A stretch of DNA of 32,000 nucleotides from an uncultured bacterium (lineage in GTDB: Bacteria; Margulisbacteria; WOR-1; CAVSGV01), in contig OY969425.1 of NCBI GenBank assembly GCA_963699255.1, positions 540,001 through 572,000 on the forward strand. The letters are read 5' to 3'. Under the pieces are notes generated by a model that made no database searches, was not told the DNA's origin, and saw only the letters and a list, made by a program, of their open reading frames with translations. The translations under genes and the position numbers were made by a program. Below are positions 9,459 to 31,088 of the stretch, one piece after another; position 1 is the stretch's first letter; each line of letters begins with the position of its first letter.

Positions 9459-9531
9459 ACCCCTTCTGTCCCTCGCTTGAGCTCGGGACATCTCCCCCTT
9501 AGTAAGGGGGAGACACAGAGGGGGTTTTGTC
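9459..9531. repeat. structured intergenic repeat, copy A
   Basis: This copy has 73 nt and differs from copy B (13221-13293) at 6 positions. It contains the perfect palindrome TCTCCCCCTT-AGT-AAGGGGGAGA. A 10-bp outer stem (CCCCTTCTGT at 9460-9469 with ACAGAGGGGG at 9515-9524) encloses it. Confidence 0.65.
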
Positions 9532-12048: not shown

Positions 12049-12054
12049 CAGAAA

Positions 12055-12104
12055 TCCCCCGCTCGCTTCACTCGCGCCCCCTTTATTAAAGGGGGTTGGG
12101 GGGA
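12055..12104. repeat. structured intergenic repeat, degenerate copy C
   Basis: The sequence TCCCCC-GCTCGCTTCACTCGCG-CCCCCTTT-ATT-AAAGGGGG-TT-GGGGGGA has the same architecture as copies A and B: a C-run/G-run outer stem, a CTCGCTT..CTCG insert and a central C5T/AG5 hairpin. The primary sequence is different. Confidence 0.4.
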
Positions 12105-13253
12105 TTAATCCAGCACTACCAGTTTTCCGCTTCCGATGACACTGTCACCCGATATTATCTTGTAAATATACATCCCGTTACCGGCGACCTGGCCGCCGAG
12201 CGACCTGCCGTTCCAGTTCACCTGGTTAGTTCCGCCTCTGGCCCCGTTCGTGCCGGAGCCGAACCTCATCCTCTTTGCTTCATGTCCGGTTATGTCGTAT
12301 ATGACTATCGTAACGGCCGCGTCCTTGGACAGCGTGTACTGGATCGTCGTGGCAACGCCTGACATCGGACTGAATGGATTGGGATAATTGTATGTCCCTC
12401 CTACGACCTGCACAGACCCTCCTAACACCCTGGCTTCCATCGTGTCTTCACAGGCATTCGCGCTGATATCCTCCATGTGAAAAGTGAATAGATGTCTCTG
12501 CTGGGAGCCCGGTTGTATGGTGAAGTTGCCATACCATGTCCCGTAAAGAGAGTTCCCTGAAACAAGGCTCAACGGCGGATAGACCGGAATATTGTCAACC
12601 CTCAATAAAACTGAAGCGACACCCGCTCCGACTTCGCTTGATATGATAGCTTCCATGCTCACGTGGGATGATATTATGTCCCCGGACCTGACCCTGACGC
12701 CGTTCACCCATACAGCCACTACTTTCATAATGTCAGAAAAGGCTTCCGGCGTAAAAATAGTTGAAACCTGAAATGAAGGGACCGACCATTCTATCGGCAT
12801 GGGAGGATCGCCGGCCTCGATCGTGTCAGAAAGCTGAGAGTCGCCGTAATGGTCGGACATTACCAGAGAAGGGCCGTTCCATGCCCTTACGTAGAGCCTG
12901 CATTGCTCAGCAAGGGATTGGTCGCCCGCGAAATCCCTGATAAAAGCGCCGTTGCTCAGTCCGCCCTGCCCTACAGGCCCCGCCCAGAGGATAGTATCGC
13001 CGCCTGAGGGTCCGCCATATTTACTTGGAACATGGATAGTCTCTTCTGAAGCGCAAATGATCTGGATAACTTCGCCCGTAGGCAATGCATTGCCGTCCAG
13101 CCCTTGAACGGCCTGATTTGTCCCGTCCATCTGAACGGTGACCGTGACAGCCGACGCAGGAAGGTTGAATCCAAATGACAAAACCCCGATGACAAATAAA
13201 ACCCAAACGACAAATGACAAACCCCTTCCGTCTCTCGCTTGCGCTCGAGACAT
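12105..13253 (-). CDS. S7: secreted protein with the shared N-domain and a T9SS-type/FlgD-Ig-like C-terminal domain
   Basis: The signal peptide (..LSFVVWVLFVIGVLSFGFNLPASA) is followed by the N-domain also found in S2, S3 and S5. The C-terminus reads NYPNPFSP..TIQYTL..VTIVIYDITGHE....WNGRSLGGQVAGNGMYIYKI. The track starts at 13316, but 13254-13316 is read through repeat copy B. I prefer the ATG at 13253 (MSRAQARDGRG..). Confidence 0.8.
   Translation of the reverse strand: MSRAQARDGRGLSFVVWVLFVIGVLSFGFNLPASAVTVTVQMDGTNQAVQGLDGNALPTGEVIQIICASEETIHVPSKYGGPSGGDTILWAGPVGQGGLSNGAFIRDFAGDQSLAEQCRLYVRAWNGPSLVMSDHYGDSQLSDTIEAGDPPMPIEWSVPSFQVSTIFTPEAFSDIMKVVAVWVNGVRVRSGDIISSHVSMEAIISSEVGAGVASVLLRVDNIPVYPPLSLVSGNSLYGTWYGNFTIQPGSQQRHLFTFHMEDISANACEDTMEARVLGGSVQVVGGTYNYPNPFSPMSGVATTIQYTLSKDAAVTIVIYDITGHEAKRMRFGSGTNGARGGTNQVNWNGRSLGGQVAGNGMYIYKIISGDSVIGSGKLVVLD
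12108..12401 (-). other. T9SS type-A-like / FlgD-Ig-like C-terminal domain of S7
   Basis: The last 98 aa match the Por-secretion-tail pattern (N.PNPF.p.T.I.y.l......v.l.IyD..G......  ....WnG....G..v..G.Y.y.i). Confidence 0.6.
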
Positions 13254-13293
13254 CTCCCCCTTACTAAGGGGGAGATACAGAGGGGGTTTTGTC
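13221..13293. repeat. structured intergenic repeat, copy B
   Basis: 67 of its 73 nt are identical to copy A. The central palindrome is TCTCCCCCTT-ACT-AAGGGGGAGA. It lies between the S6 stop and the body of S7, and it supplies the S7 start codon and SD-like GGGGGAG. Confidence 0.65.
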
Positions 13294-13322
13294 GTTTTAT
13301 ATTTAAAATTTGTCATTACCGA

Positions 13323-15773
13323 TTAAGGTTTGGGTCTTGTCCCCCATGAGAAAGGACTTGCCGATTTCCTCTTGTAGAAATATCCCCTGTCAGCGCTCAT
13401 TTGCCATGTGGGAGCAATCCCCGTACTTACATCTATCCAGCTGCCCGACAGAGAAAGGTAGGCTTTGTTGTAGTTGGTGGTCCCCGGTATCAGCTGGTAG
13501 ACCACGTCCGCGCTGAGCAGATCTCCCGATTGAGCCCCGGATTCCAAGAGATTCGAATTGTTCAATAATATAGAAGCTGCCTGTCCGGAGGCTATTAGAT
13601 TCCAGCCGGGAATGATCTGGGTCGATCCGACAAAACCTCCCCCTCCTCCTCCGATCCCGCCCCCGGGCACACTGCCGGTGGAATCATAATTATTGGAATA
13701 TACAATTGACTGGGAATAAGCCCATGCCCGATAATAATATTGCTGTCCTTTAGTAAGGCCTGTATCCGAAAAGCTCTCGGTGCTGTCAATCATGGCGCTT
13801 TGAATATAAATCGGCACTTCATCGACATTAACCGGGACACCCAATGTAGGAAGAGTGCCGGATGCAAAGGGGCATGTCGCTGACGTAAATTCGCTCGTTC
13901 CCGGTTTTCTTAGGATTATCACTCCGCCCAGATTCGAACTCGAGGGATCAAACCAGTTAAGCCTGAGACTGGTATCCGTCGCCGGCATCGCATATAAAAA
14001 GCTGACCGGATCCGGCGGCGAGGTATCATAGCTTGCCTGTGCGCCTGAAGAATATCGCCTTAAGGTTTTATCGGTCCCCGTATTATTGTGAGTAAAGATC
14101 GTGACATAATAACCAAGCAATGGATCAGGGAAAACACTGGTATCAAAAGTGTAAGTCTGATTAGTAGCTCCAGGCGTCAATCCTCTCTCTTCATAGATGG
14201 CACCTCCAACTCCGGTATCTCCGGGAGTTGTGGGATAGCTGCCTAATTTTGCCACGATTATAACTCCATCAAACCATGAGTCCGAGGGGTTAGTCCAATT
14301 GACTTTTACGCCGGCCGAAGTATTTGATCCGAATACATTTGATGCATTGTGAGGAGGGATCCCGGCATCAGCAATGATCGGCGATGCAGCCGCATAGTTC
14401 CTGCCCTGTTCGTTGGGGTAGCCGTCATAAGCGCAGCGGTCATAATTATATACATTGAAAAAATATTCTGATCCGGGTGTGAGGCTGCTCACCACCGTAC
14501 TCCCTATATCACCTGTCGCGACAACAGTTGCGGTATTTACCGTGCCGCCAACACCATAATTATTGCCATTTGAATCCCCTGCTGCGCCCACAGGCGTTAT
14601 CCCTGTCCAGGTGCTTGAGGGGTTCTGCAGGACCATACATCCCGCATAATCCGAGGCGCTCCCTTTATTCCAGTATAGAGTTACCTTGTCATTCTCCGGC
14701 ACATACCCTGTAAAACCGGTTATCGTATCCCAACTGCTGCCATTATAGTGGAACATTCTAGGCTGATTCCCATTAACCGAAATATCGGATACATTTTTAG
14801 CCGAAAAAGATGGAGAAGCGCAAGGCGTGTAATCGTGGGATTTTACCGCAGAGCTCCAGGGAGTAGAAGTTTCATTATGGTCAAGAGTATTATCCACCGC
14901 TTCAACCCTGTAGTAATAGCTCACGGGGTTTCCGGTGGTGTAATCAATAAGATCATCAGGAAATCCCCCCTGAATGCCCGTGCTTAGGCCGTTCGGGTAA
15001 CTTCCTCCGCTGATGGAAAAATCACCGCCCGCAATTAGCGTGCCTGTGCCTGAACCTGTCGTGCTCCTGTATACTTTATACCTGACATTGTTTGAATTAT
15101 AACTGGTGGCAGTGATCCCAAAAGGAGTATAGTCAGTCACTCCTGCCGTTGTCCATGAAACGTTTATCTTATTTCCCGTTTGAGCATCGGTGACTCCTCC
15201 TACACCAGCAAAACCCACCGGCGAATGCGAGGCAGCAATGTTGATCGTTTGATCATTTATCGTGCCGATTCCCAGGCCATTATGGATCACATATACGCCC
15301 GGCCCGGTTGAAAGGCGGCAGGTGTCAGGCTCCCAGCTCAAAAGCGCGGTTCCCGTGGCAGTGGGAGTGATCCTGAAAGTCAGCTGATAAATATCGGTGG
15401 CAGATGAAACATCCCATCCGGTACCACTCGTGGCTACGCCCTTCGCATATTGAACTTTGCCTTCGGAAAAGGTGGCATTGATCGATGAAACATCAAACCA
15501 GCTTGAACTCATATAATCGCCTGATACTATGGGTCGCGTATTTGTTACGTATACAAACTTGTTGAGCTCATAATCCACCCAAGCATCGATCCCCACAATG
15601 TGACGGGCACTGCTTGGAGTATATCGAATATTGATAGGCCTGTCGCTGTTTTGCTCCCAATTGTGCGAAGAGTCCGCCTCATAGAAGCCTATACTATCCG
15701 CCAAAGCGGCAGAGGCCAGCATTACAACGATCAATGGGACCAAAAGCCCAACCTCCTTAAAAAAACTTTTCAT
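13323..15773 (-). CDS. S6: secreted protein with a cohesin-like N-module, FN3-like domains, a Gly-rich linker and CTD-A
   Basis: This intact ORF is 823 aa in the track. I prefer the internal ATG at 15773 (MKSFFKEVGLLVPLIVVMLASAALA), which has GAAGGGGG upstream. It is a paralogue of S4. FN3-like segments include KINVSWTTAGVTDYTPFGITATSY, VTLYWNKGSASDYAGCMVL, VKVNWTNPSDSWFDGVIIVAK and LRLNWFDPSSSNLGGVIILRK. Confidence 0.85.
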   Translation of the reverse strand: MKSFFKEVGLLVPLIVVMLASAALADSIGFYEADSSHNWEQNSDRPINIRYTPSSARHIVGIDAWVDYELNKFVYVTNTRPIVSGDYMSSSWFDVSSINATFSEGKVQYAKGVATSGTGWDVSSATDIYQLTFRITPTATGTALLSWEPDTCRLSTGPGVYVIHNGLGIGTINDQTINIAASHSPVGFAGVGGVTDAQTGNKINVSWTTAGVTDYTPFGITATSYNSNNVRYKVYRSTTGSGTGTLIAGGDFSISGGSYPNGLSTGIQGGFPDDLIDYTTGNPVSYYYRVEAVDNTLDHNETSTPWSSAVKSHDYTPCASPSFSAKNVSDISVNGNQPRMFHYNGSSWDTITGFTGYVPENDKVTLYWNKGSASDYAGCMVLQNPSSTWTGITPVGAAGDSNGNNYGVGGTVNTATVVATGDIGSTVVSSLTPGSEYFFNVYNYDRCAYDGYPNEQGRNYAAASPIIADAGIPPHNASNVFGSNTSAGVKVNWTNPSDSWFDGVIIVAKLGSYPTTPGDTGVGGAIYEERGLTPGATNQTYTFDTSVFPDPLLGYYVTIFTHNNTGTDKTLRRYSSGAQASYDTSPPDPVSFLYAMPATDTSLRLNWFDPSSSNLGGVIILRKPGTSEFTSATCPFASGTLPTLGVPVNVDEVPIYIQSAMIDSTESFSDTGLTKGQQYYYRAWAYSQSIVYSNNYDSTGSVPGGGIGGGGGGFVGSTQIIPGWNLIASGQAASILLNNSNLLESGAQSGDLLSADVVYQLIPGTTNYNKAYLSLSGSWIDVSTGIAPTWQMSADRGYFYKRKSASPFSWGTRPKP
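13326..13625 (-). other. CTD-A, conserved ~100-aa C-terminal domain (S6 copy)
   Basis: The domain reads IPGWNLIASGQ...DVVYQLIPGTTNYNKAYLSLSGSWIDVSTGIAPTWQMSADRGYFYKRK..WGTRPKP and is preceded by PGGGIGGGGGGF. Homologous C-termini occur in S1 (two copies), S2 and S4. Confidence 0.6.
15231..15698 (-). other. cohesin-like module of S6
   Basis: This ~155-aa module follows the signal peptide directly. HIVGIDAWVDYELNKFVYV, GKVQYAKGVATSG and DIYQLTFRITPTATGTALLSWE parallel the cohesin strands seen in clostridial cohesins (I.n.DF.f.YDpnvL.., ..i.f.f.....G, G.fa.i.f.v....G...i.f). This assignment is by eye only. Confidence 0.45.
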
Positions 15774-15802
15774 ATTAAAACCCCCTTCTTTCATTTGAAC
15801 AA

Positions 15803-16885
15803 TTATCTGGGCACAAAACTCTTAGCTCCAGCCTGCCAATTTACCCTCCAGTATGGGAGGTCCCCGCTGGCAGTGATAGATCCATCCCCATCAAGATCTG
15901 AATTGGGGTCAAATCCCGTCTCACCTTGCTTTATTCCTGACTGCCAGGCAGTCTGCCAGAAGGGCAGATCTCCTGAAGATGTAACCTGTCCATCCGCATC
16001 TATATCCCCTGCCCGCAAGCTCATAGTACTGTTGGCTTCTGTAGTCATGGCATCCGGGAAAGGAGCAACCGAATAGGCCGTATAATAGTTGCCTGCTGAA
16101 GGTTCCGAAATGTTCACGGAAGCTGTCCCTCCGCCAAAAGGAACTTTATCATTTGTTATGATCGCAAGATGGTTGGGGCCGATAGTGTTTCCGGCTTTAT
16201 GCTTGATCACCAGATAAAAATCACCCGCCGCATAGATATCCACCGTACCTACTCCGGTAGTATCCAAGCTGATATATTCCGAAGTCACCATATTTCCAGG
16301 GAAAGCGGTTCCGGGATCACTGCCGTTTCGCAGCTCAACTTCTATCGTAGCCGGAACCTGAAGACCGGTGCTTGGATTATAATATCCCTGCAGGTAGGCC
16401 TTTAATGTAAGGGTCGTAGCCGGCGGATTCTCGGTAGTGGTAGTGAATGTCCAAGTATAAGGGCCGGCCAATGGATTTCCGGATATGTTCCGCACTCCGG
16501 TATCGACAGTGCAGGTTATAGTTTCACTGGTAACGAATATTCCGGTCTGGTTAAAGGTAACGGTCCTTGTACTGTCATTATAAGAAGGTTTGGTCGCATG
16601 GACACCGGTTTTATCGCCGGTCACCATAAAGTTTTCGGCTGTTACGGTGCTTCCTAATAAAGAATTATTAAAGGCAGCGGTTATATTCGGGAATAAAAAT
16701 ACTCCCGTGGCATTGCTCTCCGGAGTGGTAGAGGTCACCGCAAGGGCGCCCGTGCTGATATTGACCTCCCGGCTGGAAGAAGAACTGACATTGCCGGCAT
16801 TATCCACGGCATGTACCTCCCAGGTATGAAGACCATCACTTAAGGAGGTTTCCGGTGTTGCCGAGATACTCGAGAGATGATACAT
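15803..16885 (-). CDS. S5, C-terminal fragment (Ig-like, Big_5-type Ig, beta-sandwich, dockerin-like end); no signal peptide of its own
   Basis: The 360-aa ORF is colinear with residues ~640-983 of S3 (HTWEVHAVDNAGNVSSSSS, TPESNATGVFLFPNI, TVTFNQ, CTVDTGV..GNP..PYTW.FTT, YLQGYYN). It overlaps the upstream fragment (16836-18785) in a different frame. Together the two fragments form one frameshifted gene. Confidence 0.75.
   Translation of the reverse strand: MYHLSSISATPETSLSDGLHTWEVHAVDNAGNVSSSSSREVNISTGALAVTSTTPESNATGVFLFPNITAAFNNSLLGSTVTAENFMVTGDKTGVHATKPSYNDSTRTVTFNQTGIFVTSETITCTVDTGVRNISGNPLAGPYTWTFTTTTENPPATTLTLKAYLQGYYNPSTGLQVPATIEVELRNGSDPGTAFPGNMVTSEYISLDTTGVGTVDIYAAGDFYLVIKHKAGNTIGPNHLAIITNDKVPFGGGTASVNISEPSAGNYYTAYSVAPFPDAMTTEANSTMSLRAGDIDADGQVTSSGDLPFWQTAWQSGIKQGETGFDPNSDLDGDGSITASGDLPYWRVNWQAGAKSFVPR
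15806..16012 (-). other. dockerin-like duplicated EF-hand module of S5
   Basis: The module has two parts, DIDADGQVTSSGDLPFWQTAWQSG and DLDGDGSITASGDLPYWRVNWQAG. Each is a Ca-loop (D.D.DG.[IV]) followed by a helix, at the extreme C-terminus. Confidence 0.55.
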
Positions 16886-18785
16886 CTATATTTTTGACAC
16901 TATCGATCCACAACTCATATTTTGCCAGTCCGGAACCAAAATCCGAAGACGCTTCCCAGGAAAAAGTGGGGGTTTGAATACTTAACCATGATCCTGATTC
17001 CGGGCTTATTAGATAAACACTTGCCGGCGGCGTCATATCCACTCCAAAGTCCATCGCGGACTCATCGTTATCGCCAAAACTGACCCAGTCACCTGTATTA
17101 TCGGCAGAATCCATTACCCTGGCCTGCCAGTGATACGCTCCTTCACCCATGTTCTCAAGAGTTATTAAGCCCGTCACAGGTGTTCCGGAATATGGAACTC
17201 CTTCGCCCGTGGCTGTGACAGTGCCATTGAAATCCGTTCCTACCGGTTCTATTTCCACTTCAGGATATAACGTCGTCCCGCTTAGGGGTGAACTCATGCT
17301 CATACTGATCTCTACCGTAGACTCGGTCATCCATTCTCCGGTGGCGATCGCAGTTATACCGTCCGATCTGAATTGACCAAGCCCTGCGGGAAGGTTCGGA
17401 GCAACGATGCCGAAAGCTTCGGTAGTAAAGGAAGCGACACTGCTGTATTCGCTGGTACCGTTCACGTTCACCGCAGCGACCTTCCAGTAGTATTCCGTGG
17501 TCGCACTAAGACTGGTGAATGTCCAGGCCGCTTCATCCGTGGTAGCCACTGTATCCGCCGCAGAGTCCTGCGTACCGTAACTTATCACAAAATATCCCGT
17601 GTAGCTTCCCGTATCCCATGTGCCGTACGCGGAGTCGGTGGTTATGTTCGTTGTGACCAGGCCCTCCGGAGTCCCCGGCAGAGCATCGGAATCCGCAGAT
17701 GAAACGTATGTCGTTAAAATATTGTCGCCGTTATATGCATATATATAGTAGAAGTGCGCCTGGTCAGCTACCAGATTGGCATCCACCGTAGTGGCCGCCG
17801 TACCTGTATAGATAAGCGCCCCGCCCAATGCTTCGGGGGTACCCTCGTACACCTCGAATCCGGACTGAGCACCGCCCGATTCCCACGAAATGACACAATC
17901 ATAACCGGCGCCATTCACTCCCAAGACAGATGGATTGATCGGAGCATTAGCCAGGGTATATTTTGGTTCCGCCGTCGCATATCCGCTGTAGCCCGCTTCA
18001 TTATATGCCCTCACCCTGACCCAGTACGCTTCATTTGTGGATAATCCATAGATAGTATATAAATCGTCGCCGGCTTCAGCCGTTCCCGTAAATATGGTCA
18101 CCCATGGATCGGTCGCGGACACCTCGATACTGAACCCTTTCTCATTAATTGAATTGACCTGCCATGTAAAACTCTCGGATGTGTCGCTGAGAGCTTCCAG
18201 TGTGGCATCGCTTGGATCCGCAGGAACGGAAACGGTCACGAATTCCGAGGAAGCAAAAAATGTCGGGACCGACCAGCTCTGGGGCATTGGCGGCGCGCCC
18301 GCGTCAAGGCTGGCAGAAAGATGGGAGTCGCCGTAATAGGTGGATGATTCGATGCTGGGGCCGTTCCACGCTCTTATGTAGATATGGCTGTCATCGAGCA
18401 GGGATTGGCCGCCCACGAATTCCTTGATAAAAGCGCCGGGCCCCATGATATAAGGGGGATCGCCCAGTTCGCCCTGTCCCACAACTCCGGTCCAGATCAA
18501 GGAATCTCCGCCCGTTGCTTCTCCTGTCGTGCCGGGCGCATGGATGGCTTCATTTGACGCGTAAATGACCTGGATGACCTCTCCGGTAGGCATCTTTGCG
18601 CCGTCATGGTCATATATGATCTGGTTCGTCCCGTCCATCATGACGGTGACCGAAACAGCCTCCGCCTGCCGCGGGATGGCAAATGACCAGATACCAACGA
18701 CAAAACAGATCCCGATGATAAATTTCCAGACCGGAAATTTGATCCCGGATATCATTTTATTGCCTGATGATCTCAGATCAGCCAT
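16836..18785 (-). CDS. S5, N-terminal fragment (signal peptide, shared N-domain, FN3-like domains, Ig-like)
   Basis: The 649-aa ORF has the RBS AGGAG 7 nt upstream of its ATG. It is colinear with residues 1-~630 of S3, and the N-domain is about four fifths identical by eye. It ends ..LAKYELWIDSVKNIDV and then runs into out-of-frame sequence. Confidence 0.8.
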   Translation of the reverse strand: MADLRSSGNKMISGIKFPVWKFIIGICFVVGIWSFAIPRQAEAVSVTVMMDGTNQIIYDHDGAKMPTGEVIQVIYASNEAIHAPGTTGEATGGDSLIWTGVVGQGELGDPPYIMGPGAFIKEFVGGQSLLDDSHIYIRAWNGPSIESSTYYGDSHLSASLDAGAPPMPQSWSVPTFFASSEFVTVSVPADPSDATLEALSDTSESFTWQVNSINEKGFSIEVSATDPWVTIFTGTAEAGDDLYTIYGLSTNEAYWVRVRAYNEAGYSGYATAEPKYTLANAPINPSVLGVNGAGYDCVISWESGGAQSGFEVYEGTPEALGGALIYTGTAATTVDANLVADQAHFYYIYAYNGDNILTTYVSSADSDALPGTPEGLVTTNITTDSAYGTWDTGSYTGYFVISYGTQDSAADTVATTDEAAWTFTSLSATTEYYWKVAAVNVNGTSEYSSVASFTTEAFGIVAPNLPAGLGQFRSDGITAIATGEWMTESTVEISMSMSSPLSGTTLYPEVEIEPVGTDFNGTVTATGEGVPYSGTPVTGLITLENMGEGAYHWQARVMDSADNTGDWVSFGDNDESAMDFGVDMTPPASVYLISPESGSWLSIQTPTFSWEASSDFGSGLAKYELWIDSVKNIDVSSLEYLGNTGNLLK

Positions 18786-18815
18786 TATTAACTCCTGATA
18801 ATGACAATTATTATG

Positions 18816-20966
18816 CTACCTCGCTTCCCAGGTGAAAGGATAATTCGTGTTCCTCATCAGGAAATATCCCGCATCCGGGGTCATTTCCCATGTGGCCACC
18901 CCGCCGGTATCCTGATCGAACCATTGATTAGAAACAACGACGGTGGCCAACTTGTAATTGTTCGTTCCGGGAATGATCCTGTATATCTTGTCCCCTGATG
19001 CGGCTCCCTGCAGTATCAGAGTTGACTGGTCAAGTGTCTTTGATATTTGCTGGCCTGTGGATATCATGTTCCACCCGGGAACGATCGTTGTGGGACCCGC
19101 AAAGAGCACTCCTCCGATCCCGCCTCCAGGTAAGGCGGCGGTGGAATCGTACGCGGACGGATAATTATACGCGTCATCATTGGACCAGATACGGTAGTAA
19201 TAGGTCTCCGATGAAGACAGCCCGGTATCCTGGAAGTACTCCAGAGGACCTGAATAGATCACGACTTCCTGGGAAATCCCGGAACCTCCGACGGGGGGAG
19301 TAAATGTGGTATAGGGGTTACCCGTCAGCGGAAAATCCGATGGATTGTAAACAAATTCGCTTGTGCCGATCTTTCTTAAGATGACCACACCCAGAAAATC
19401 CGAGTCGGTCGGGTTGGTCCAATTCAGATCAACGCTCGTGCTGCTGCTTGGCAGGGCGTAGAAATACTTCACCGGAGCCGGCGCTGTTGTATCATAGCCT
19501 GCCTGCACGCCAGAAGAATACCGCCTGTGGTTAATATCCGCCGCCTTATTATATGTATATACAGTAACGTGATAATCGTTAGCAACATCGTCCAGAGGGT
19601 TCGGGCAGGCCACATTATCAAAAGTATAGGTCGTAGGATCTGTGGCAGAAGATTCATGGAACGCATATACATCTCCCGGGTTTGATGAATAGCCGTGTTT
19701 TTTTACAGCTATCCTAACTCCGTCAAAGTAGCTCTCGCCGGGGTTAGTCCAGGTGACGGTAATGCCGTTCGTATTCTTGAACGAGGTCACGGATGGCACG
19801 TTGGAAGGAGAGACGCCGGGTGTCGCAACAATAGTTAATGTAGAACTGTAGTTCCTGCCCTGCTGGCCTATCCCCGCGGAACCATCGTAGTCCTCAGCCA
19901 GGTCATAAGCCGTTATATTATAATAATATGGGACGCCGTTCTGAAGGTCAGTCGATCCATCTTTCAGCTTGGTCCTTACGAGCTGAGCTACGCTTTCCTT
20001 CGAGACCACTTTCCCATTGTTAAAAGAATACCCGTCCGGATAGTCCGTACCATTGTTATCTCCTGACGCAGATTGGAATGTGAACGGGGTCCACGGATCG
20101 GTATCGCTGCCGATGACCAGATACCCTGCCAAGTCGCTCGCGGAGGAAGGATCCCATTTCAGCGTTACCTGCTTATCACCCGGAACGTATCCCGTAAAAG
20201 AGCTTGTCGGCCCCTGCCATGTAGTTCCGTTATCGGTGGTCCAGTACATTGCCGGGGCTCCTCCCTGGAGCGACGAGGTCGGCGCGTCCGGAGCGACATA
20301 GTCGTGGGATTTCACAGTAACGGCCTGGGAATTGTTGTCTTCATTAGGAGTGACACAGTTATCAAGGGCATGCAGCATATATGTGTAGGTATAATTATGC
20401 GGCGGGCAGCAATCGTACGGCTCATTGCCTTCATATTGCCCGTTGGAATTGCCGTCATCATAGTTCGTCGCTCCCGGAGAAGATGTTTCCAGGGTTGTAT
20501 AACTGCTTTCATCGTTGTTCCTCTTGCGAAGGACTTTGAACCTTAAATTGTGCGGATCATAGGTCGTTGCAGTAATGCCATATGGGGTGACATCCGTTGC
20601 CTGGGTATTGTCCCATGTTACCTGCAGCATATTGCCGGTATCAGGATTAGGAGGCGTGACCGGATTGCTTTTTGAGTTTATCCCTACATTGGAACCCCAG
20701 GTCGGAGGAGCACTTTGTGTAATGGTTATAGTTCTGGCCGGCGTTGATCCCGTAACATCTACTCCCGCTCCGGGGGTTCTTAAAAGTTTAATGCCTGCGG
20801 TATACCAATTGAAAGAGTCGTTGGACCCGAGCTGAGCCGTAGGCGATACCAGAAATTGCAGATCATACAGGGAAACAGTTCCTGTACCGGTCGTCCAATA
20901 CTTGGCTTGCGTAGTATCCCTTGTGTATATAATGTGGCACGGAGGAGTAGTATCTGCGGATAAATT
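18816..20966 (-). CDS. S4, C-terminal fragment (rest of the cohesin-like module, FN3-like domains, CTD-A)
   Basis: The track lists 18816-20630 (604 aa, from the first ATG). The frame is open up to 20966, and the extra 112 codons (..TGTGTVSLYDLQFLVSPTAQLGSNDSFNWYTAGIKL..) align with the cohesin-like region of S6. It is a paralogue of S6. Confidence 0.75.
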   Translation of the reverse strand, partial: NLSADTTPPCHIIYTRDTTQAKYWTTGTGTVSLYDLQFLVSPTAQLGSNDSFNWYTAGIKLLRTPGAGVDVTGSTPARTITITQSAPPTWGSNVGINSKSNPVTPPNPDTGNMLQVTWDNTQATDVTPYGITATTYDPHNLRFKVLRKRNNDESSYTTLETSSPGATNYDDGNSNGQYEGNEPYDCCPPHNYTYTYMLHALDNCVTPNEDNNSQAVTVKSHDYVAPDAPTSSLQGGAPAMYWTTDNGTTWQGPTSSFTGYVPGDKQVTLKWDPSSASDLAGYLVIGSDTDPWTPFTFQSASGDNNGTDYPDGYSFNNGKVVSKESVAQLVRTKLKDGSTDLQNGVPYYYNITAYDLAEDYDGSAGIGQQGRNYSSTLTIVATPGVSPSNVPSVTSFKNTNGITVTWTNPGESYFDGVRIAVKKHGYSSNPGDVYAFHESSATDPTTYTFDNVACPNPLDDVANDYHVTVYTYNKAADINHRRYSSGVQAGYDTTAPAPVKYFYALPSSSTSVDLNWTNPTDSDFLGVVILRKIGTSEFVYNPSDFPLTGNPYTTFTPPVGGSGISQEVVIYSGPLEYFQDTGLSSSETYYYRIWSNDDAYNYPSAYDSTAALPGGGIGGVLFAGPTTIVPGWNMISTGQQISKTLDQSTLILQGAASGDKIYRIIPGTNNYKLATVVVSNQWFDQDTGGVATWEMTPDAGYFLMRNTNYPFTWEAR
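18819..19094 (-). other. CTD-A (S4 copy)
   Basis: The domain reads VPGWNMISTGQ...KIYRIIPGTNNYKLATVVVSNQWFDQDTGGVATWEMTPDAGYFLMRN..FTWEAR and is preceded by PGGGIGG. Confidence 0.55.
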
Positions 20967-21250
20967 CTATCAACGCCTTCCAGAACGGTCGTCGGTATTT
21001 CATTTGACATGGTGGGCACGCCAAGGTTAGCGAAACCATCATAATTATTATATTGCAGATGGGCGTCGAAACCCAGGATCTGATAGCTTGTGCCGGTGAC
21101 ATAGTTTATCCTTAGCGGGCGATAGCTGTTCTGCTCCCAGGTATAATTTGAAGAATCGATGGACACATCCGCATACGCGAAACCCGCAGCGCCGAATAAG
21201 AACACAAGCAGGACTCCGATCACCTTCCATTTTTTCATTTTATTCTTCAT
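20780..21250 (-). CDS. S4, N-terminal fragment (signal peptide and first part of the cohesin-like module)
   Basis: I prefer the ATG at 21250 (MKNKMKKWKVIGVLLVFLFGAAGFAYA), which has GGAGGAG upstream. The track start at 21283 overlaps the end of S3. Homology to S6 (NYTWEQNSYRPLRINY..ILGFDAHLQYN) holds to about 20967. After that this frame reads non-homologous sequence until its stop at 20780. Confidence 0.65.
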   Translation of the reverse strand: MKNKMKKWKVIGVLLVFLFGAAGFAYADVSIDSSNYTWEQNSYRPLRINYVTGTSYQILGFDAHLQYNNYDGFANLGVPTMSNEIPTTVLEGVDRIYPQILLLRATLYTQGILRKPSIGRPVQELFPCMICNFWYRLRLSSGPTTLSIGIPQALNF

Positions 21251-21266
21251 TCTTAACTCCTCCTTT

Positions 21267-24218
21267 TTATGGGACTGGGGCATAACTGTTCACCCCGTTA
21301 TTACTAAGCCAGATGCCGAAATCATCGATGCGGATCAGGCCGTCGCCGTTAAAATCCGCTCTCGGGTCGAATCCGGACTCACCGGCATTCAAGCCGTTCG
21401 CTGCCAGCCAGATGCCGAAATCGTCGATGCGGATATATGGGTCGCCATTCGCGTTCCCGCCGCGCATGCTGAGCTTTCCGTCCGTTTCCGTCCACTCCGC
21501 GCTTGGTGACGCGGTCGGAGTATATGCCGGATCGGTCCCGTCAGCCAGGTCCACAATGACCGGCCCGGACCCAAAGTTCTTTGTGCTGTTGGTTATTACG
21601 GACAGGTGGTTCGACTCGAAAGAAATGCCCGCATGTTGAACTTCAACATAGAAGCTCCCTGCCGGGACATTTATATCCGCGGTGCCGGTGCCTGTCGCAT
21701 CCAGGATGATCTCCTGAGAACCTGCGATGGTGTGAGCGGTGCCTGGATCACTGCCCTGCCGCAGCTGCACTTCTACGGTCGCCGGGGACTCCTGCGTGCC
21801 GCTGATCGCATTATAATATCCCTGCAAGTATACTTTAACGGTAACGTTGGTGGCGGGCGGGACCTCGGATGTCGTCGTAAATGACCAGGTATAAGGATAG
21901 GCCATTGGATTTCCGGCTTTATCCTGCACTCCGGTATCCACAGTGCAGGTCACGGTCTCACTTGTGGCGAATTCCCCCGCCTGATTGAACGTTACGGTCT
22001 GGGTACTGTCATTATAAGAAAGGTTCGTCGTTTCATGGGAACCGGATTTACTCCCCGTTACCTCAAAGTATTCAAATGTGACAGTGCTTTCTGTTAAGCC
22101 TTTGTTAAATGTCGCCATGATATTCGGGAACAGGAACACGCCGGTGGCATTGCTCTCCGGAGTGACCAAACTCACCGCAAGAGGAACAGTATCTATATTG
22201 ACCTCCCAGCTGGAAGAAGAACTGACATTGCCTGCAAGATCCACGGCATTAACCTCCCAGGTGTGAACGCCGCTACTTAAGGGAGCTACCGGTTCAGCTG
22301 AAGTCATCGTGGACGGGACAACTTCATTAGTGACGCCGTCTATCCACAGCTCATATTTCGCCAGGCCGGACGGCGCATCATTAGCGCCGATCCATTCAAA
22401 AGTAGGCGTTTGTGTGTTCATCCAGGTACCCGGAAGAGGGCTTTGCAGGATCGGTAAAGTAGGCGGAGTCATATCCACGCCAACATCCATAGAGGATTCA
22501 GCGTTTCCGCCAAAGCTCTCCCAGCTGCCCGTATGACCGGCGGCATCTCTTACCCTTACCTGCCAGTGATATGGCCATTCAGCTAAGTTCTCAAGAGTTA
22601 TTATGCCGGTCACAGGTGAGACGGAATAAGGGACCCCTTCGCCGGTGGCTGTGACCCTGCCGTTAAAATCCGTCCCTACCGGTTCTATTTCCACCTCAGG
22701 AGATAAAATAGAAGCGATAGGAGAAGTCATGCTCATACTGATCTCCACTGTAGACTCGTTTATCCATTCTCCGGTAGCGATCGCGGTTATCCCGTCCGAT
22801 CTGAATTGATCAAGCTCTGCGGGAAGGTTCGGAACAGGAGGCGACAAAGCTTCGGTAGTAAAGGAGGCGACACTGCTGAATTCGCTGGTACCGTTAATAT
22901 TCACGGCCGCGACTTTCCAGAAGTATTCCGTGGCCGGATTAAGCATTGTAAATGTATAAGCCGCTTCGTCCGTGGTGACCAACGCGTCCGTGACAGATTC
23001 CTGCGTCCCGTAACGTATGACATAAGATCCCGCGCCGCTCACCGCCTCCCATGTGCCGTAAGCGTCATCGGTCGTGATATTCGAGATGACCAGGCCTTCC
23101 GGGGTCCCGGGCAGGGCATCGGAATCCGCGGATGAAACATACGTCGTTAAAACATTGTCCCCGTTATAGGCATATATAAAGTAAACATTATTGGCATCGG
23201 GATCGGCATCAACGGTCGTTATCGCTGTCCCCGTATAGATCGGTGTCGCTCCCGGACTGTTCGCGGGATAATTGCGGTATACCTCGAATCCTGTCTGAGC
23301 TCCGCCGGATTCCCAGGAAATAACACAACTATAACCAGGAACATTCACACCCAGGACAGATGGAGGATTTACAGGAGCATTCGCCAGGGTATATCTCGAT
23401 TCAGCGGTCGCCGGATCGCTATAGCCGGATATATTATATGCGCTGACCCTGAACCAGTACGCCTCGTCTGTGGCTAATCCATCGGCCTCATATGAAGTGA
23501 CATTGGCATCAACCGTGGCCGTAACTATATCCGTCCAGGTTTCAGATGTGGACATCTCGATCCTGAAGCCCTGCTCGTTATTTGAATTATCCTGCCAGGT
23601 AAGCTCCATGGAAGCGGTGCCCAGTACTTCCAGCGTGGCATTGCTTGGAGCTAAAGGAGCATAAAGAGCCGCTAATTCTGTTGAAGCATAAAAAGTCGGG
23701 ACAGACCAAAATTGTGGCATCGGCGGCACGCCCGCATCAAGTGTTGTGGAAAGCTGGGAATTGCCGTAATAGGTGGATGATTCGACACTGGGGCCGTTCC
23801 ATGCCCTCACATAAATTCGGCTATAATCGATCAGCGACTGTCCGCCGGCGAATGCTTTTGTAAAAGCGCCGGGCCCCATGACAAAAGGTGGATCGCCAAG
23901 TCCGCCCTGCCCCACAACTCCCGTCCAGATCAAGGAATCTCCGCCTGTGGCTTCGCCGGTCGGGCCGGGCGCATGTATAGCTTCATCTGACGCGTAAATG
24001 ATCTGGATGACTTCTCCCGTAGGCATCTTGGCGCCGTTATGGTCATATATGATCTGGCTGGTCCCGTCCATTTGAACGTTGACCGTGACCGCAGATGCCG
24101 GAAGCATGGATCCAGATGACAGGATCCATGATACGAACAGAATCCCAATAGCCAGCTTCCAGACCGTGGATCCGTATCTGGCGATCATTTTATGATATGG
24201 CAACCATAGATCTGCCAA
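21267..24218 (-). CDS. S3: secreted protein with the shared N-domain, FN3-like domains, Ig-like and Big_5-type Ig domains, a beta-sandwich and a dockerin-like C-terminus
   Basis: This intact 983-aa ORF uses a TTG start with AAGGAG 6 nt upstream. The start is homologous to the ATG start of S5 (MADL..). The signal peptide is ..LAIGILFVSWILSSGSMLPASA. The Big_5/SbsA-type segment is TPESNATGVFLFPNIMATFNKGLTESTV..VTFNQ..CTVDTGVQDKAGNPM. Confidence 0.88.
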   Translation of the reverse strand: MADLWLPYHKMIARYGSTVWKLAIGILFVSWILSSGSMLPASAVTVNVQMDGTSQIIYDHNGAKMPTGEVIQIIYASDEAIHAPGPTGEATGGDSLIWTGVVGQGGLGDPPFVMGPGAFTKAFAGGQSLIDYSRIYVRAWNGPSVESSTYYGNSQLSTTLDAGVPPMPQFWSVPTFYASTELAALYAPLAPSNATLEVLGTASMELTWQDNSNNEQGFRIEMSTSETWTDIVTATVDANVTSYEADGLATDEAYWFRVSAYNISGYSDPATAESRYTLANAPVNPPSVLGVNVPGYSCVISWESGGAQTGFEVYRNYPANSPGATPIYTGTAITTVDADPDANNVYFIYAYNGDNVLTTYVSSADSDALPGTPEGLVISNITTDDAYGTWEAVSGAGSYVIRYGTQESVTDALVTTDEAAYTFTMLNPATEYFWKVAAVNINGTSEFSSVASFTTEALSPPVPNLPAELDQFRSDGITAIATGEWINESTVEISMSMTSPIASILSPEVEIEPVGTDFNGRVTATGEGVPYSVSPVTGIITLENLAEWPYHWQVRVRDAAGHTGSWESFGGNAESSMDVGVDMTPPTLPILQSPLPGTWMNTQTPTFEWIGANDAPSGLAKYELWIDGVTNEVVPSTMTSAEPVAPLSSGVHTWEVNAVDLAGNVSSSSSWEVNIDTVPLAVSLVTPESNATGVFLFPNIMATFNKGLTESTVTFEYFEVTGSKSGSHETTNLSYNDSTQTVTFNQAGEFATSETVTCTVDTGVQDKAGNPMAYPYTWSFTTTSEVPPATNVTVKVYLQGYYNAISGTQESPATVEVQLRQGSDPGTAHTIAGSQEIILDATGTGTADINVPAGSFYVEVQHAGISFESNHLSVITNSTKNFGSGPVIVDLADGTDPAYTPTASPSAEWTETDGKLSMRGGNANGDPYIRIDDFGIWLAANGLNAGESGFDPRADFNGDGLIRIDDFGIWLSNNGVNSYAPVP
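21270..21461 (-). other. dockerin-like duplicated EF-hand module of S3
   Basis: The module has two parts 33 codons apart, GNANGDPYIRIDDFGIWLAANG and ADFNGDGLIRIDDFGIWLSNNG. The IRIDDFGIWL parts are encoded by a 27-bp direct repeat with 26 of 27 positions identical. Confidence 0.6.
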
Positions 24219-24296: not shown

Positions 24297-25862
24297 TTAA
24301 GGTTTAGGCCTTACCCCCCACATCAACGAACTCGGCTTTCTTCTCATATAGAAATATCCTTTGTCAGGCTCTATCCCCCAGGTTGGCGCAGACCCCGTAT
24401 TTGGATCGATCCAGACGCCAGATAAAGACAGGTATGCTTCTTTAAAATTTGTTGTTCCCGGTTCGTACTGGTAGATCACGTCCGCCGTACCCGCGTCCCC
24501 CGTCGCGGCCCCTGATTCAAAAAGATTTGAATTATCCAGCGCCATCGGCTCCGCCTGCCCGGCGGCGATCAAGCTGAACCCGGATTCCATTGTCGACGGC
24601 CCCGTAAATCCTCCCGCCATTCCGAACTGCAAATCCGTGATGTTGGATATTGCCGACCAGTTGGGCGTTGTATCCTTTGACTTTACCGCAAAGGATCTGA
24701 TCCCGGCCGGCAGCCCCGCGATCGTAACTTCCTGTGTTAAACCCCAGTGCAGCGGCGTCGGCGTCGAGTAAGAAGGGTCTACGGATGTCGCCAGATACCA
24801 GTCCACGAACCCTTCAAGCGTCGATGACAGGATCGGCTCCGGGCTGTACCTTATATCATACCCCGTAACAGTGGCCGGCGCGCCCAGTCTATCCGTGTCG
24901 TACGGCGCTGTCCATTCCAGCGTCACCGTGTATGATCCCGCGCTCCCTCCCGAATCCTTTATCCTGAGGTCCGTTATCGTCTGCGGCGGCGTAAGATCAG
25001 GCTTGCGCTGCGTATGGAATGGTACAGCTGCGCTCCAGCCGCTTGGTCCAAATGAATTTACCGCCTGTACCCTTACCGAATAATCCGTATCGTCGGACAG
25101 CCCTGACATATCTATCGACTTCAAGTCCGTCGAGTTCGGTGATGGATACCGCTGAGCATTATTATATAGAGGAGGGGACGTCGATACCGGTCCGCTCCCT
25201 GATTCCCAGCTTATCTCATAGTATCTCGCTCCAAATGACGCGTCAAATGTTGCCGTAGCTGTGTTATATAATATTGACCCTACTCCCAAATTCGTCGGCG
25301 TGTCCGGCGCGGTCTTTGAGAACATCACCTGAAAGGTTGGAAGACTTACCTCGCTGGGTGCTGAAGGTGGAGAGCCTGGCATCGCCGTAAATATCTGTGA
25401 CTCCCCGAACTTTGCATCGCCTAAGCCAGGGTCTTTGTTCCACGCGCGCACATAAAAGGAATTCACGTTCGTTGTTATCGTCGAGAGGTCGGTATAGAAC
25501 TCCCCGGCCATATTAGAAAATCCGTGGTGCTTATTGTCATCTCCAACAGTATATGATTTGACCAGACTCTCTCCTGCGCCAGTATCAACATTCCCGTTGC
25601 TCAGCGGCCCTACTATGAAGTTGCCAGACGCGTTAATATACTGCACCGGACTCCCTACCGCCAGTGGCGCACCGGTATCATCTTCCACCGTTCCGAACGT
25701 GGTAAAATTCAATGGAGGCCCGGAATACGCCGGCAGATCCGGCACGCAGCCCGCAAGCACCGAATAAACCGTGCAATACGCCCCGCTCACGCCACCTCCC
25801 ATTATCATGATCAGCATAAAGATCAATATCTTAAGCTTCCTTTTCATTTTATTTTTTCCCAT
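24297..25862 (-). CDS. S2: secreted or lipid-anchored protein with a diverged shared N-domain, two FN3-like domains and CTD-A
   Basis: The 521-aa ORF has the RBS GAGGAGGAG. The signal peptide is KLKILIFMLIMIMGGGVSGAYC, and the Cys suggests a possible lipobox. N-domain motifs are FYVRAWN and SLPTFQV. FN3-like segments are ATATFDASFGARYYEISW..YSVRVQAVNSFGPSGWS and YTVTLEWTAPYD. Confidence 0.85.
   Translation of the reverse strand: MGKNKMKRKLKILIFMLIMIMGGGVSGAYCTVYSVLAGCVPDLPAYSGPPLNFTTFGTVEDDTGAPLAVGSPVQYINASGNFIVGPLSNGNVDTGAGESLVKSYTVGDDNKHHGFSNMAGEFYTDLSTITTNVNSFYVRAWNKDPGLGDAKFGESQIFTAMPGSPPSAPSEVSLPTFQVMFSKTAPDTPTNLGVGSILYNTATATFDASFGARYYEISWESGSGPVSTSPPLYNNAQRYPSPNSTDLKSIDMSGLSDDTDYSVRVQAVNSFGPSGWSAAVPFHTQRKPDLTPPQTITDLRIKDSGGSAGSYTVTLEWTAPYDTDRLGAPATVTGYDIRYSPEPILSSTLEGFVDWYLATSVDPSYSTPTPLHWGLTQEVTIAGLPAGIRSFAVKSKDTTPNWSAISNITDLQFGMAGGFTGPSTMESGFSLIAAGQAEPMALDNSNLFESGAATGDAGTADVIYQYEPGTTNFKEAYLSLSGVWIDPNTGSAPTWGIEPDKGYFYMRRKPSSLMWGVRPKP
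24300..24599 (-). other. CTD-A (S2 copy)
   Basis: The domain reads SGFSLIAAGQ...DVIYQYEPGTTNFKEAYLSLSGVWIDPNTGSAPTWGIEPDKGYFYMRR..WGVRPKP. It is very similar to the S6 copy. Confidence 0.6.
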
Positions 25863-30013: not shown

Positions 30014-30014
30014 G

Positions 30015-31088
30015 CTATTTGAAGTAAAGGTGCAGTTTGAGAATCTCTATTGTGGAGGACTCACTATAGATCCCGCCGCCGCCGTATACCGCGCTATTTG
30101 ATTCAAAAGAGCAGTTCAAGACGACCGGAGAGGAGGAGTAGTAGCTGGCTAAACCGCCGGCGTTGTGACCTGCCCTATTTGAAATAAAATCACAGTTTTT
30201 GATGGTTGGAGAGGAATTGTCCAAACCAAGCCCGCCGCCATCTCCGCCGGAGACATAACCATTTTGTATGGTGAAGTTCTCAACGGTGGTGGCAGAACCA
30301 AGCCCCTCTCCGTGCATGCACTGGACGCTGCCTTCTCCGGATATTCTGGTAAGCGAGGGATCGTTGATCTGCGCCCAACTATCGTCGTAGCCTCCCATTA
30401 AATGGACGCCGCTTGAGAGAAAAATTGTGCCCGGAACAGTCAGAGAATATGTCCCCATCTTCACATGTATCTCATCGCCGTAGCGCATGTTCCCATTGCT
30501 CTCGGCTGAGTTAATGGTATTAAAGGCGTCATTCGTAGAGCGGCCGGTATGAGTAAAGTCATTTCCATTGATGCTGTCAACGTACCAGATCGTTGGAACA
30601 GGTATGATGCTGAACTTGCCGCTTTCACCGTACCCGCTGTTGCCGGAGGTATCTACCGCGGTGATCTTTATCTTTGCCTCCGTGGTGGCGATATTAGGAA
30701 CCGTCCAGGCATAGCTTCCACTGTTAGCTATACCCGTGACGATCGCAGTATAGGATGATCCCCCGTCTATTGAGTAAGAGATGCTGATGGGGTTTGTAAT
30801 AAGCCCCTGATCATCGGAAGCTTCCCAGGTAATATCGTAGCTGTACCCCCCGGTCCAGACATCCCCGCCTGCGGGAGAAAAGACCTCAACGGTGGGAGGC
30901 GTGATATCGGTCAGGACCGATTCAGAGCTGGTGTAACCATAATAATGGTATCCCATGTTCACTATCCCATCGTCGCCGTGGAACCTGTCCAGGTTGGTCC
31001 CGTAACCTTGCTGCCATCCAAGACCAAGTATCTGACGCCTCGCCGGTCCCGGTATTAACGCAGGGCGAGTTATTGGGAAGGTGCACAT
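30015..31088 (-). CDS. S1, middle fragment (Ig-like domain and the start of beta-helix module 2)
   Basis: In the 357-aa ORF only the part from ..ILGLGWQQGYGTNLDRFHGDDGIVNMGYHYYGY onward is homologous to the inter-module linker seen elsewhere in S1. The fragment ends inside a beta-helix repeat (..GGGGIYSESSTIE) that continues in another frame at 30046. Confidence 0.7.
   Translation of the reverse strand: MCTFPITRPALIPGPARRQILGLGWQQGYGTNLDRFHGDDGIVNMGYHYYGYTSSESVLTDITPPTVEVFSPAGGDVWTGGYSYDITWEASDDQGLITNPISISYSIDGGSSYTAIVTGIANSGSYAWTVPNIATTEAKIKITAVDTSGNSGYGESGKFSIIPVPTIWYVDSINGNDFTHTGRSTNDAFNTINSAESNGNMRYGDEIHVKMGTYSLTVPGTIFLSSGVHLMGGYDDSWAQINDPSLTRISGEGSVQCMHGEGLGSATTVENFTIQNGYVSGGDGGGLGLDNSSPTIKNCDFISNRAGHNAGGLASYYSSSPVVLNCSFESNSAVYGGGGIYSESSTIEILKLHLYFK

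Follow-up and report, generated by a model that had tools for sequence, protein, structure and literature searches.

Two tandem gene pairs for putative X-module-dockerin/cohesin connectors, without enzymes, in an uncultured Margulisbacteria bacterium

The stretch of 32,000 nucleotides (nt) analysed here, in the following called the window, comprises positions 540,001 to 572,000 of contig OY969425.1 (assembly GCA_963699255.1) from an uncultured bacterium of the Margulisbacteria. It carries four consecutive genes for large predicted surface proteins, referred to as S3, S4, S5 and S6. S3 and S5 end in a dockerin-like tail, S4 and S6 begin with a cohesin-like head, and each of the two tail genes is directly followed by a head gene. 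This region probably holds a conserved connector module of two genes, which is present twice in tandem, belongs to a rare family of such modules from uncultivated bacteria and lets neighbouring proteins plug into each other via an X-module-dockerin unit (X-Doc) and a cohesin (Coh), with no enzyme involved. Judged from sequences and structure models, the products of adjacent genes are likely to bind each other, and the chances that the S3-S4 and S5-S6 pairs are mutually orthogonal appear to be even. Like all genes of interest, the four are located on the minus strand:

24218..21267, minus strand: S3, 983 amino acids (aa), with a leader, an N-terminal domain (N-domain), fn3 repeats, Big_13/Big_5 Ig domains, an X module and a dockerin
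21250..18816, minus strand: S4, a cohesin-headed stalk protein of ~811 aa if repaired
18785..15803, minus strand: S5, an S3 paralogue with 993 aa after removal of the extra T at 16868
15773..13323, minus strand: S6, an intact cohesin-headed stalk protein of 816 aa

The Pfam domains determined for S3 were fn3, Big_5 and Big_13. The C-terminal regions of S3 and S5 each comprise an X module followed by the dockerin-like tail, with the following positions:

21465..21869, minus strand: X module of S3, a beta-sandwich directly before the dockerin (strands over residues 6-135 of an AlphaFold2 (AF2) model, in a block with a predicted local confidence (pLDDT) of mostly 80-93)
21270..21464, minus strand: dockerin-like tail of S3, two near-identical segments, each with a 12-residue EF-hand loop and an IRIDDFGIWL helix
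16016..16405, minus strand: X module of S5, which aligns with that of S3 at 46% identity
15806..16015, minus strand: dockerin-like tail of S5, two segments, each with a 13-residue loop and an LP[FY]W helix (104 bits with the tail profile)

Both tails consist of two units in tandem, each of ~22 residues and composed of an EF-hand-type loop and a helix, as is the case for dockerins. The C-terminus of S3 reads GNANGDPYIRIDDFGIWLAANG...ADFNGDGLIRIDDFGIWLSNNGVNSYAPVP up to the stop codon and contains the canonical 12-residue loops NANGDPYIRIDD and DFNGDGLIRIDD, with FGIWL after each. The 13-residue loops of S5, DIDADGQVTSSGD and DLDGDGSITASGD, show the pattern D-x-D-x-D-G-x-[VI]-T-x-S-G-D, with LP[FY]W after each. 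The tail peptides of S3 and S5 and the head peptides of S6 that had been quoted in a preliminary description of the window were all found on the minus strand. In an alignment of the family, each dockerin helix contains a Trp that is invariant and the motif D-[FYL]-[GP]-x-W, and the X modules share the motifs LQGYY and SNHL.[IV]IT (SNHLSVIT in S3) throughout.

The last 200 residues of S3 were modelled with AF2 on the basis of an alignment of seven sequences. The model (pLDDT 77.5, predicted TM-score (pTM) 0.72) comprises a beta-sandwich followed by two short helices (152-157 and 181-188). Its ten best PDB matches in Foldseek were all type II X-module-dockerin (XDoc) dyads with E = 3.5e-7 to 2e-6, among them 4wi0_B, 4u3s_B, 5k39_B, 4fl4, 3kcp_A, 5m0y_B, 2b59_B and 5g5d_B, and the next match followed at E = 8e-4, which is ~400-fold weaker. 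The alignments span 192-205 columns (~195) at a sequence identity of 13-18%, with a TM-score on the target of 0.56-0.67 for stand-alone XDoc chains and 0.38-0.39 for longer multimodular chains. Since it is the whole 200-residue model that matches type II XDoc dyads best, the S3 tail is, as modelled, a type-II-like X-Doc unit rather than a bare dockerin, which renders the previously proposed paired EF-hand dockerin fold more specific. By sequence, the S3 tail matches the PDB dockerin 2y3n_B with E = 7.8e-4, and a phmmer search of the PDB sequences with the S5 tail alone gave nothing useful. A profile of six tail sequences matches the dockerins 2y3n_B, 8x39_A, 5nrk_B, 5lxv_B and 1ohz_B, mixed with ordinary EF-hand proteins. 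The Pfam family Dockerin_1 was matched by two of these six tails, at best with E = 1.9e-4.

S4 and S6 each begin with a signal peptide, followed by a beta-sandwich head:

15228..15701, minus strand: cohesin-like head of S6, mature residues 25-182, from AF2 model, Foldseek and head profile
20712..21172, minus strand: cohesin-like head of S4, split across two frames at ~20967 (profile positions 1-70 versus 73-156)

The AF2 model of the S6 head, which was calculated from an alignment of three sequences, is all-beta (pLDDT 65, pTM 0.62) and, at this pLDDT, shows the nine-stranded jelly-roll of cohesins. Its PDB matches in Foldseek are nearly all cohesins, with E = 5e-7 to 1e-4 and a TM-score on the target of 0.6-0.73, and include 4ums, 2jh2, 5lxv, 5nrk, 1aoh, 6kgc, 1g1k and the non-cellulosomal Archaeoglobus fulgidus cohesin 2xdh. 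An alpha-helical insertion and beta-flaps set type II cohesins apart from type I. The low-quality model of the S6 head is devoid of helices of four or more residues, and its best matches mix type I, type II, type III and non-cellulosomal cohesins. By sequence, a profile of 13 heads matches the cohesin 4ums_A over nearly its full length (E = 0.002), and the S6 head alone gave nothing useful in a phmmer search of the PDB sequences. Furthermore, the remote head homologues P0009 (26.8 bits) and P0010 (27.7 bits) lie above the Pfam Cohesin cut-off of 24.1 bits, with P0014 (22.7 bits) and P0007 (19.4 bits) just under it. The cohesin-type fold that had been proposed for the heads is therefore borne out by the matches of the S6 model and by these two homologues. 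The S4 head is 77% identical to the head of its intact orthologue P0005. Altogether, the head family is rare: an exhaustive profile search among 1.84 billion representative proteins yielded 13 relatives, and a word-indexed homologue search yielded two matches for S6 and two for the head profile.

The arrangement of tail gene and head gene is conserved outside the window. At all ten readable junctions, in the window as well as in eight further loci or locus groups, a gene with an X-Doc tail lies directly before a cohesin-headed gene. The gaps in the other loci, where measured, amount to 15-21 nt, compared to 16 and 29 nt in the window. The position of S4 behind S3 had been described correctly, since its start ATG at 21250 is preceded by AGGAGG and lies exactly 16 nt past the S3 stop. 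Locus L003 (JGI 3300081534) contains two pairs: in one of them an S3-type tail lies 16 nt before P0005, and in the other the upstream gene encodes an S5-like protein of 1363 aa, whose tail is of a third type, and a further cohesin head follows. In the metagenome-assembled genome (MAG) GCA_043812655.1 (L004), a 458-aa CarboxypepD_reg protein with an X-Doc tail is encoded 17 nt before P0006, while in L005 the tail lies 15 nt before P0009 with its Pfam-positive head. For L006, only the last tail residues before P0013 could be read. P0021 of L008/L009, with a faint precomputed Dockerin_1 match, is located 21 nt before a 658-aa cohesin-headed protein, and P0019 of the MAG GCA_043820455.1 (L010), whose tail is of the S3 type, is followed after 16 nt by a head of the S4 type. 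In L013-L016, finally, P0020 lies 16 nt before a P0009-type head. A scan of genome contigs gave only the already known MAG JBDRLW01, and a scan of metagenome contigs gave one weak locus, L011. While the X-Doc-to-Coh junction is constant, the remaining part of the dockerin protein varies from ~300 to more than 1,300 residues with different domains. In L003, for example, it forms fn3/Big_5 stalks that reach 1363 aa, whereas L004 and L008 encode CarboxypepD_reg proteins with 366-458 aa.

A comparison of S3 with S5 showed an identity of 62% overall, with 82-87% at residues 61-150, fluctuating values of 45-80% in the middle and 27-33% in the last ~120 residues. Of the gradient reported in the preliminary description, the high identity in the N-domain and the low identity at the end were thus confirmed, whereas the steady fall between them was not, since the values fluctuate and then drop sharply. 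The heads of S4 and S6, which had likewise been described as strongly diverged, are 20-23% identical and form the lowest stretch of a pair with 36% identity. Between orthologues the opposite was determined: the tail reaches 85-87% compared to 64% overall, and the heads reach 73-82% compared to 63% and 75-80% compared to 68%, where low N-terminal values between S3 and the first gene of L003 (g1) may be an artefact, as the L003 gene runs off its contig. Tail and head are therefore the best conserved parts between orthologues from different metagenomes and the worst conserved parts between the paralogues of this genome. As far as can be judged from sequence, this pattern fits the expectation for interface modules that stay the same within one type while co-resident types are driven to diverge, and hence separate specificities.

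At least five types of tail and head are visible, and two of them co-exist in each of two genomes. S3-type tails (window, L003 g1 and L010) are always found ahead of S4-type heads, and L005-type tails (L005 and L013) ahead of P0009-type heads. The tails of L003 g3 and L004, which are 57% identical, precede the two heads that are most alike outside orthologues (37%). The identity matrices of tails and heads are correlated, with a Mantel r of 0.89 that was reached by 4 of 5040 permutations. Together with the ten junctions and the contrast between orthologues and paralogues, this match of types strongly supports the earlier nomination of the binding partners by gene adjacency. In known dockerins, near-identical segments go along with a dual binding mode (PMC12484212). 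By analogy, the tails of this family, each with two near-identical segments, may bind in two modes as well.

From these data we infer the following assembly. S3 and S5 would be exported stalks of fn3/Ig-like domains with the N-domain at one end and the X-Doc unit at the C-terminus. S4 and S6 would be stalks from the same operon with a single cohesin at the extreme N-terminus and a further domain, here named CTD-X, at the C-terminus. Once exported, S3 and S5 would each insert their Ca2+-loaded dockerin into the cohesin encoded by the neighbouring gene, and the two proteins would form a fibre of two pieces and ~1,800 residues with the order cell, CTD-X, stalk, Coh::Doc-X, stalk and, at the tip, N-domain. 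Due to the diverged interfaces of S3 with S4 and of S5 with S6, no cross-assembly would occur. CTD-X and the C-terminal sorting domain (CTD) of the type IX secretion system (T9SS) would then represent two direct ways of fixing proteins to the cell, and the X-Doc/Coh joint a third, indirect one, by which the N-domain would be kept far away from the cell surface.

Several observations weigh against two working connector pairs. None of the four proteins reaches Pfam's own thresholds: with the profiles that the preliminary description had named for a check, PF00963 (cut-off 24.1 bits) gave no match in S4 or S6, and PF00404 gave a match of 16.8 bits (E = 0.0077) in the S5 tail, below its cut-off of 22.9, and none in S3. 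The model of the S6 head is of moderate quality, with one of five models folded, three sequences in the alignment and a pLDDT of 65, and the evidence for CTD-X as an anchor is its distribution. The X modules, moreover, correlate with the heads to the same extent as the tails do (r = 0.87), which therefore indicates co-inheritance of the gene pair and not co-evolution of the interface as such. Finally, S4 is frameshifted within its cohesin in both available assemblies, and S5 or its dockerin is disrupted in one or the other, so that the system may be decaying in this organism.

Scores below the Pfam thresholds would also fit a situation in which no cohesin-dockerin binding takes place at all, the tail being a generic Ca2+-binding EF-hand pair for stalk stability or export and the head a generic beta-sandwich adhesin, with a likeness caused by fold convergence or distant ancestry. 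The tail profile indeed matches calerythrin and calmodulin-type EF-hands at similar E-values, and integrin and CLIPPER adhesin domains appear further down the Foldseek list of the S6 head. Nonetheless, this explanation is considered very unlikely, since the X-Doc unit resembles type II XDoc dyads over all of its 200 residues, beyond the EF-hands and with nothing else close, since remote homologues of the head pass Pfam Cohesin, and since a strict 1:1 co-occurrence with juxtaposition in every locus is hard to explain without an interaction. Slightly less improbable, though still unlikely, is that the modules are real relatives of cohesins and dockerins whose partners are not their neighbours, because the tails bind another cohesin or are promiscuous, and that the adjacency reflects one operon duplicating as a block. 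Block duplication alone would produce the equal correlations of tails and X modules with the heads, and type II cohesin-dockerin pairs are known for their cross-species plasticity (PMC12484212). However, a search of all six-frame open reading frames (ORFs) with the family profiles (hmmsearch) found exactly two tails and two heads, so that the window offers no other candidate partner. In addition, ten of ten junctions were kept while the rest of the dockerin protein was swapped, and promiscuity would not require that head and tail are most conserved between orthologues and most diverged between co-resident paralogues.

The state of the genes has to be considered separately, as S4 and S5 each carry a frameshift in the window that the preliminary description had missed. 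The reading frame of S4 shifts within the cohesin-like head, near 20967/20968 (GVDR / NLSAD), as determined by tblastn with S6 and three-frame translation. At this site the intact orthologue P0005 reads GAT AAG AAC, and compared to it the window is 1 nt short. S5 is split by the extra T at 16868 into ORFs of 649 aa and 360 aa, and the restored translation contains no stop. Two Logan contigs from run ERR10755942, L001 and L002, represent the window's organism with 99.9% identity. In L002, S3 is intact as it is in the window, and S4 is 2 nt short at the break site. In L001, the T at 16868 is missing and S5 is in frame, but an indel and two mismatches at 15894-15897 break its second EF-hand segment. 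Altogether, the window and the Logan contigs differ at three sites in ~11 kb (20967, 16868 and 15894..15897), all of which lie in these surface-protein genes and involve a frame-changing indel, and these differences may originate from polymorphism or from assembly error. A programmed frameshift is rejected as an explanation for S4, as a slippery motif is missing and two assemblies show different indels at one site.

A third gene of the window is affected in the same way. The beta-helix/PMP-repeat gene upstream of S3 (25922..31893) contains at least two frameshifts, one near 31000 and one near 30040, which divide it into ORFs of 323, 357 and 1363 aa, and its repeat motifs run on across both breaks in another frame. 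It is possible, although rather doubtful, that all these lesions are genuine and that the region is a decaying relic, with pairs that no longer function here even if the family works elsewhere. The surface-protein genes contain at least four frameshifts over ~20 kb, whereas the Pfam-matched housekeeping genes (~12 kb) each form a single ORF with near-full-length domain matches. This contrast points in the direction of a relic, and so does the loss of frame in S4 at one site in two independently built assemblies with different indels. On the other hand, the Logan contig lacks the S5 frameshift, so that at least some of the indels are due to errors in assembly or to alleles carried by a minority. 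Except for single indels, the ORFs show no accumulated stops in the correct frames, and the orthologues elsewhere are intact. The lesions may thus reflect pseudogenisation, population polymorphism or assembly error. Since S4 is frameshifted, the S3-S4 pair is probably not functional in the population that was sequenced.

The proposed fibre includes two further domains, CTD-X and the N-domain, which are shared with other genes of the region. In transcription order, two of these genes precede S3 and one follows S6:

31893..25922, minus strand: beta-helix/PMP-repeat giant gene (Pfam), the first in transcription order
25862..24297, minus strand: gene for a 521-aa protein with a weakly S3-like N-domain, fn3 and CTD-X
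13316..12105, minus strand: S7, with an N-domain of the S3/S5 type followed by a T9SS type A sorting domain

The domains concerned are located as follows:

13326..13664, minus strand: CTD-X of S6, a C-terminal domain of no known family after a Gly-rich linker
18819..19127, minus strand: CTD-X of S4, after a Gly-rich linker
24300..24623, minus strand: CTD-X of the 521-aa protein, 57% identical to that of S6 over 108 aa
S3 23679..24209, S5 18138..18800 and S7 12759..13280, minus strand: N-domain of ~150 residues common to the three proteins
12114..12386, minus strand: T9SS type A sorting domain of S7 (TIGR04183, 33.2 bits compared to a cut-off of 23; Pfam FlgD_ig)

The profile of CTD-X, a domain of ~105 residues, matches exactly three ORFs of the window, and searches of Pfam and of PDB sequences gave no match for the domain. 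In L004 and L008, it is found in diverged form at the C-terminus of the cohesin-headed proteins and of some proteins encoded next to them. This distribution makes CTD-X a candidate module for anchoring to the cell, which is a conjecture. The N-domain, again without a match in Pfam or among PDB sequences, shows an identity of 82-87% between S3 and S5 and of 43-53% between S7 and these two, and is weakly present in the 521-aa protein. It is therefore found with three alternative C-terminal ends, namely X-Doc, T9SS CTD and CTD-X, and we conjecture that it could be the functional tip of the fibre. The 521-aa protein would accordingly be a directly anchored relative of the displayed N-domain protein. 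TIGR04183 was matched by S7 only, with no match in S3, the distal ORFs of S4 and S5 or S6. In L004, L006 and L008, an FlgD_ig/T9SS sorting domain of the S7 type is likewise encoded at the end of the gene that follows the cohesin gene, so that the recurring unit comprises three genes. Small mobile-type or toxin-antitoxin-like genes were also observed beside the module, namely a 23S_rRNA_IVP gene in L004 (8659..9030), where it separates the cohesin gene from the CTD gene, MJ0235/TumE-family genes in L005 (3684..4362) and HicA in L014 (9..236).

The gaps between S3 and S4, S4 and S5, S5 and S6, and S6 and S7 amount to 16, 30, 29 and 6-69 nt, respectively. No convincing terminator was found between the genes from S3 to S7, where the counts of a promoter and terminator scan were near the shuffle expectation. 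Because of the short gaps and the lack of a convincing terminator, the region from S3 to S7 is likely co-transcribed. The start of S6 at MKSFF agrees with the database protein P0001, and the ORF list contains an alternative ATG at 15794. Between S6 and S7, a palindromic repeat element of ~73-86 nt with the core hairpin TCTCCCCCTTAGTAAGGGGGAGA is located on the minus strand at 13215..13300. Since it overlaps the listed N-terminus of S7, the start of this gene is probably the ATG at 13253. A second copy of the element with 92% identity lies at 9459..9531, just upstream of a trpE-like gene, and a looser relative at ~12050..12100 between S7 and aroQ.

Downstream of S7, the housekeeping genes aroQ, M24 peptidase, ispD, trpE-like, ftsW-like, gap and pgk were found, and an LptD/LptA-like gene is present on the plus strand of the window. 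Based on this Lpt-like gene and on the T9SS-type sorting domain of S7, the organism is probably a diderm. Its lineage appears to be poorly sampled. The phosphoglycerate kinase (2744..3934, minus strand) is the sole member of its 90%-identity cluster among ~15 billion proteins, and the window's genome was not found in a scan of GTDB species representatives, though one of the search patterns should match S6.

The absence of glycoside hydrolase (GH) and carbohydrate-binding module (CBM) families, which had been stated before, was confirmed for the 21 ORFs of the window scanned against Pfam. Unlike a cellulosome, which combines dockerin-bearing carbohydrate-active enzymes with a multi-cohesin CBM scaffoldin, the window contains one cohesin per protein and two in total. 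The closest known counterpart is the type II X-Doc/cohesin anchoring of scaffoldins, as between the XDoc of Clostridium thermocellum CipA and SdbA, OlpB or ScaC, or between the XDoc of A. cellulolyticus ScaA and ScaB, which is represented by the PDB entries 2b59, 5g5d, 3kcp, 4fl4, 4wi0, 4u3s, 5k39 and 5m0y. The usual role of type II pairs is to link scaffoldins to proteins of the cell surface (PMC12484212). Similarly, S3 and S5 are predicted to combine a C-terminal Ig-like X module with a two-segment dockerin, and a non-catalytic structural protein would plug into the cohesin of another structural protein. In contrast to the type II systems, the window shows no enzymes, no CBM, no multi-cohesin scaffoldin and no S-layer homology (SLH) or sortase anchor, and the single cohesin of each protein is located at the extreme N-terminus in a probably diderm context with a T9SS-type neighbour. 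Further differences are the identity of 13-18% to the XDoc structures, the invariant Trp in each dockerin helix, the 13-residue loops of the S5 type and the missing helix in the low-quality head model.

To our knowledge, the partners of non-cellulosomal cohesin and dockerin modules are generally unassigned. One such module, the A. fulgidus cohesin 2xdh mentioned above, is among the fold matches of the S6 head. Unlike in those cases, a conserved juxtaposition names the partner here, and an X module accompanies the dockerin. The GH toxin complexes of Clostridium perfringens, whose cohesin-like modules 2jh2, 2w1n, 2vo8 and 2o4e are among the best fold matches of the S6 head, also use a joint outside cellulosomes to link two large secreted proteins. 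However, these complexes link enzymes (GH84 and GH33) in a Gram-positive pathogen, whereas no enzyme is involved here, and we know of no organisation of the C. perfringens cohesin-like and dockerin-like genes as adjacent pairs. For the Cloacimonadota 'Ca. Stygibacter', a cellulosome-like system with a CTD anchor has been proposed, in which hydrolases carry dockerins and a scaffoldin of 3,755 aa contains CBMs as well as cohesins in tandem (PMC8542988). The system described here differs from it by its single cohesins, the lack of enzymes, the 1:1 gene pairs and the position of the T9SS CTD on a third protein, S7.

In the literature searched, which did not cover the survey by Peer et al. 2009, no description of a family of enzyme-free, gene-adjacent X-Doc/Coh pairs was found. 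The principle of binding is known, and what is new is the architecture, the context and the partner table encoded by the genes. With chances somewhat short of even, the region would represent a previously undescribed, enzyme-free use of cohesin and dockerin, in which a fibre assembles itself from two halves, several insulated plug types occur per genome, the gene order is the partner table, CTD-X is a new anchor and the tip is shown at three distances from the cell (T9SS CTD, CTD-X and fibre). Cohesin-like and dockerin-like modules are scattered across non-cellulolytic microbes, with partners and purposes that are mostly unknown, and since the junction names the partner here, the role of non-cellulosomal pairs and the insulation of their specificity become testable with a few small recombinant modules. 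If the proposed assembly is true, the family would offer a two-piece, modular way of building bacterial surface fibres as well as naturally matched and probably orthogonal X-Doc/Coh connectors for the engineering of protein assemblies.

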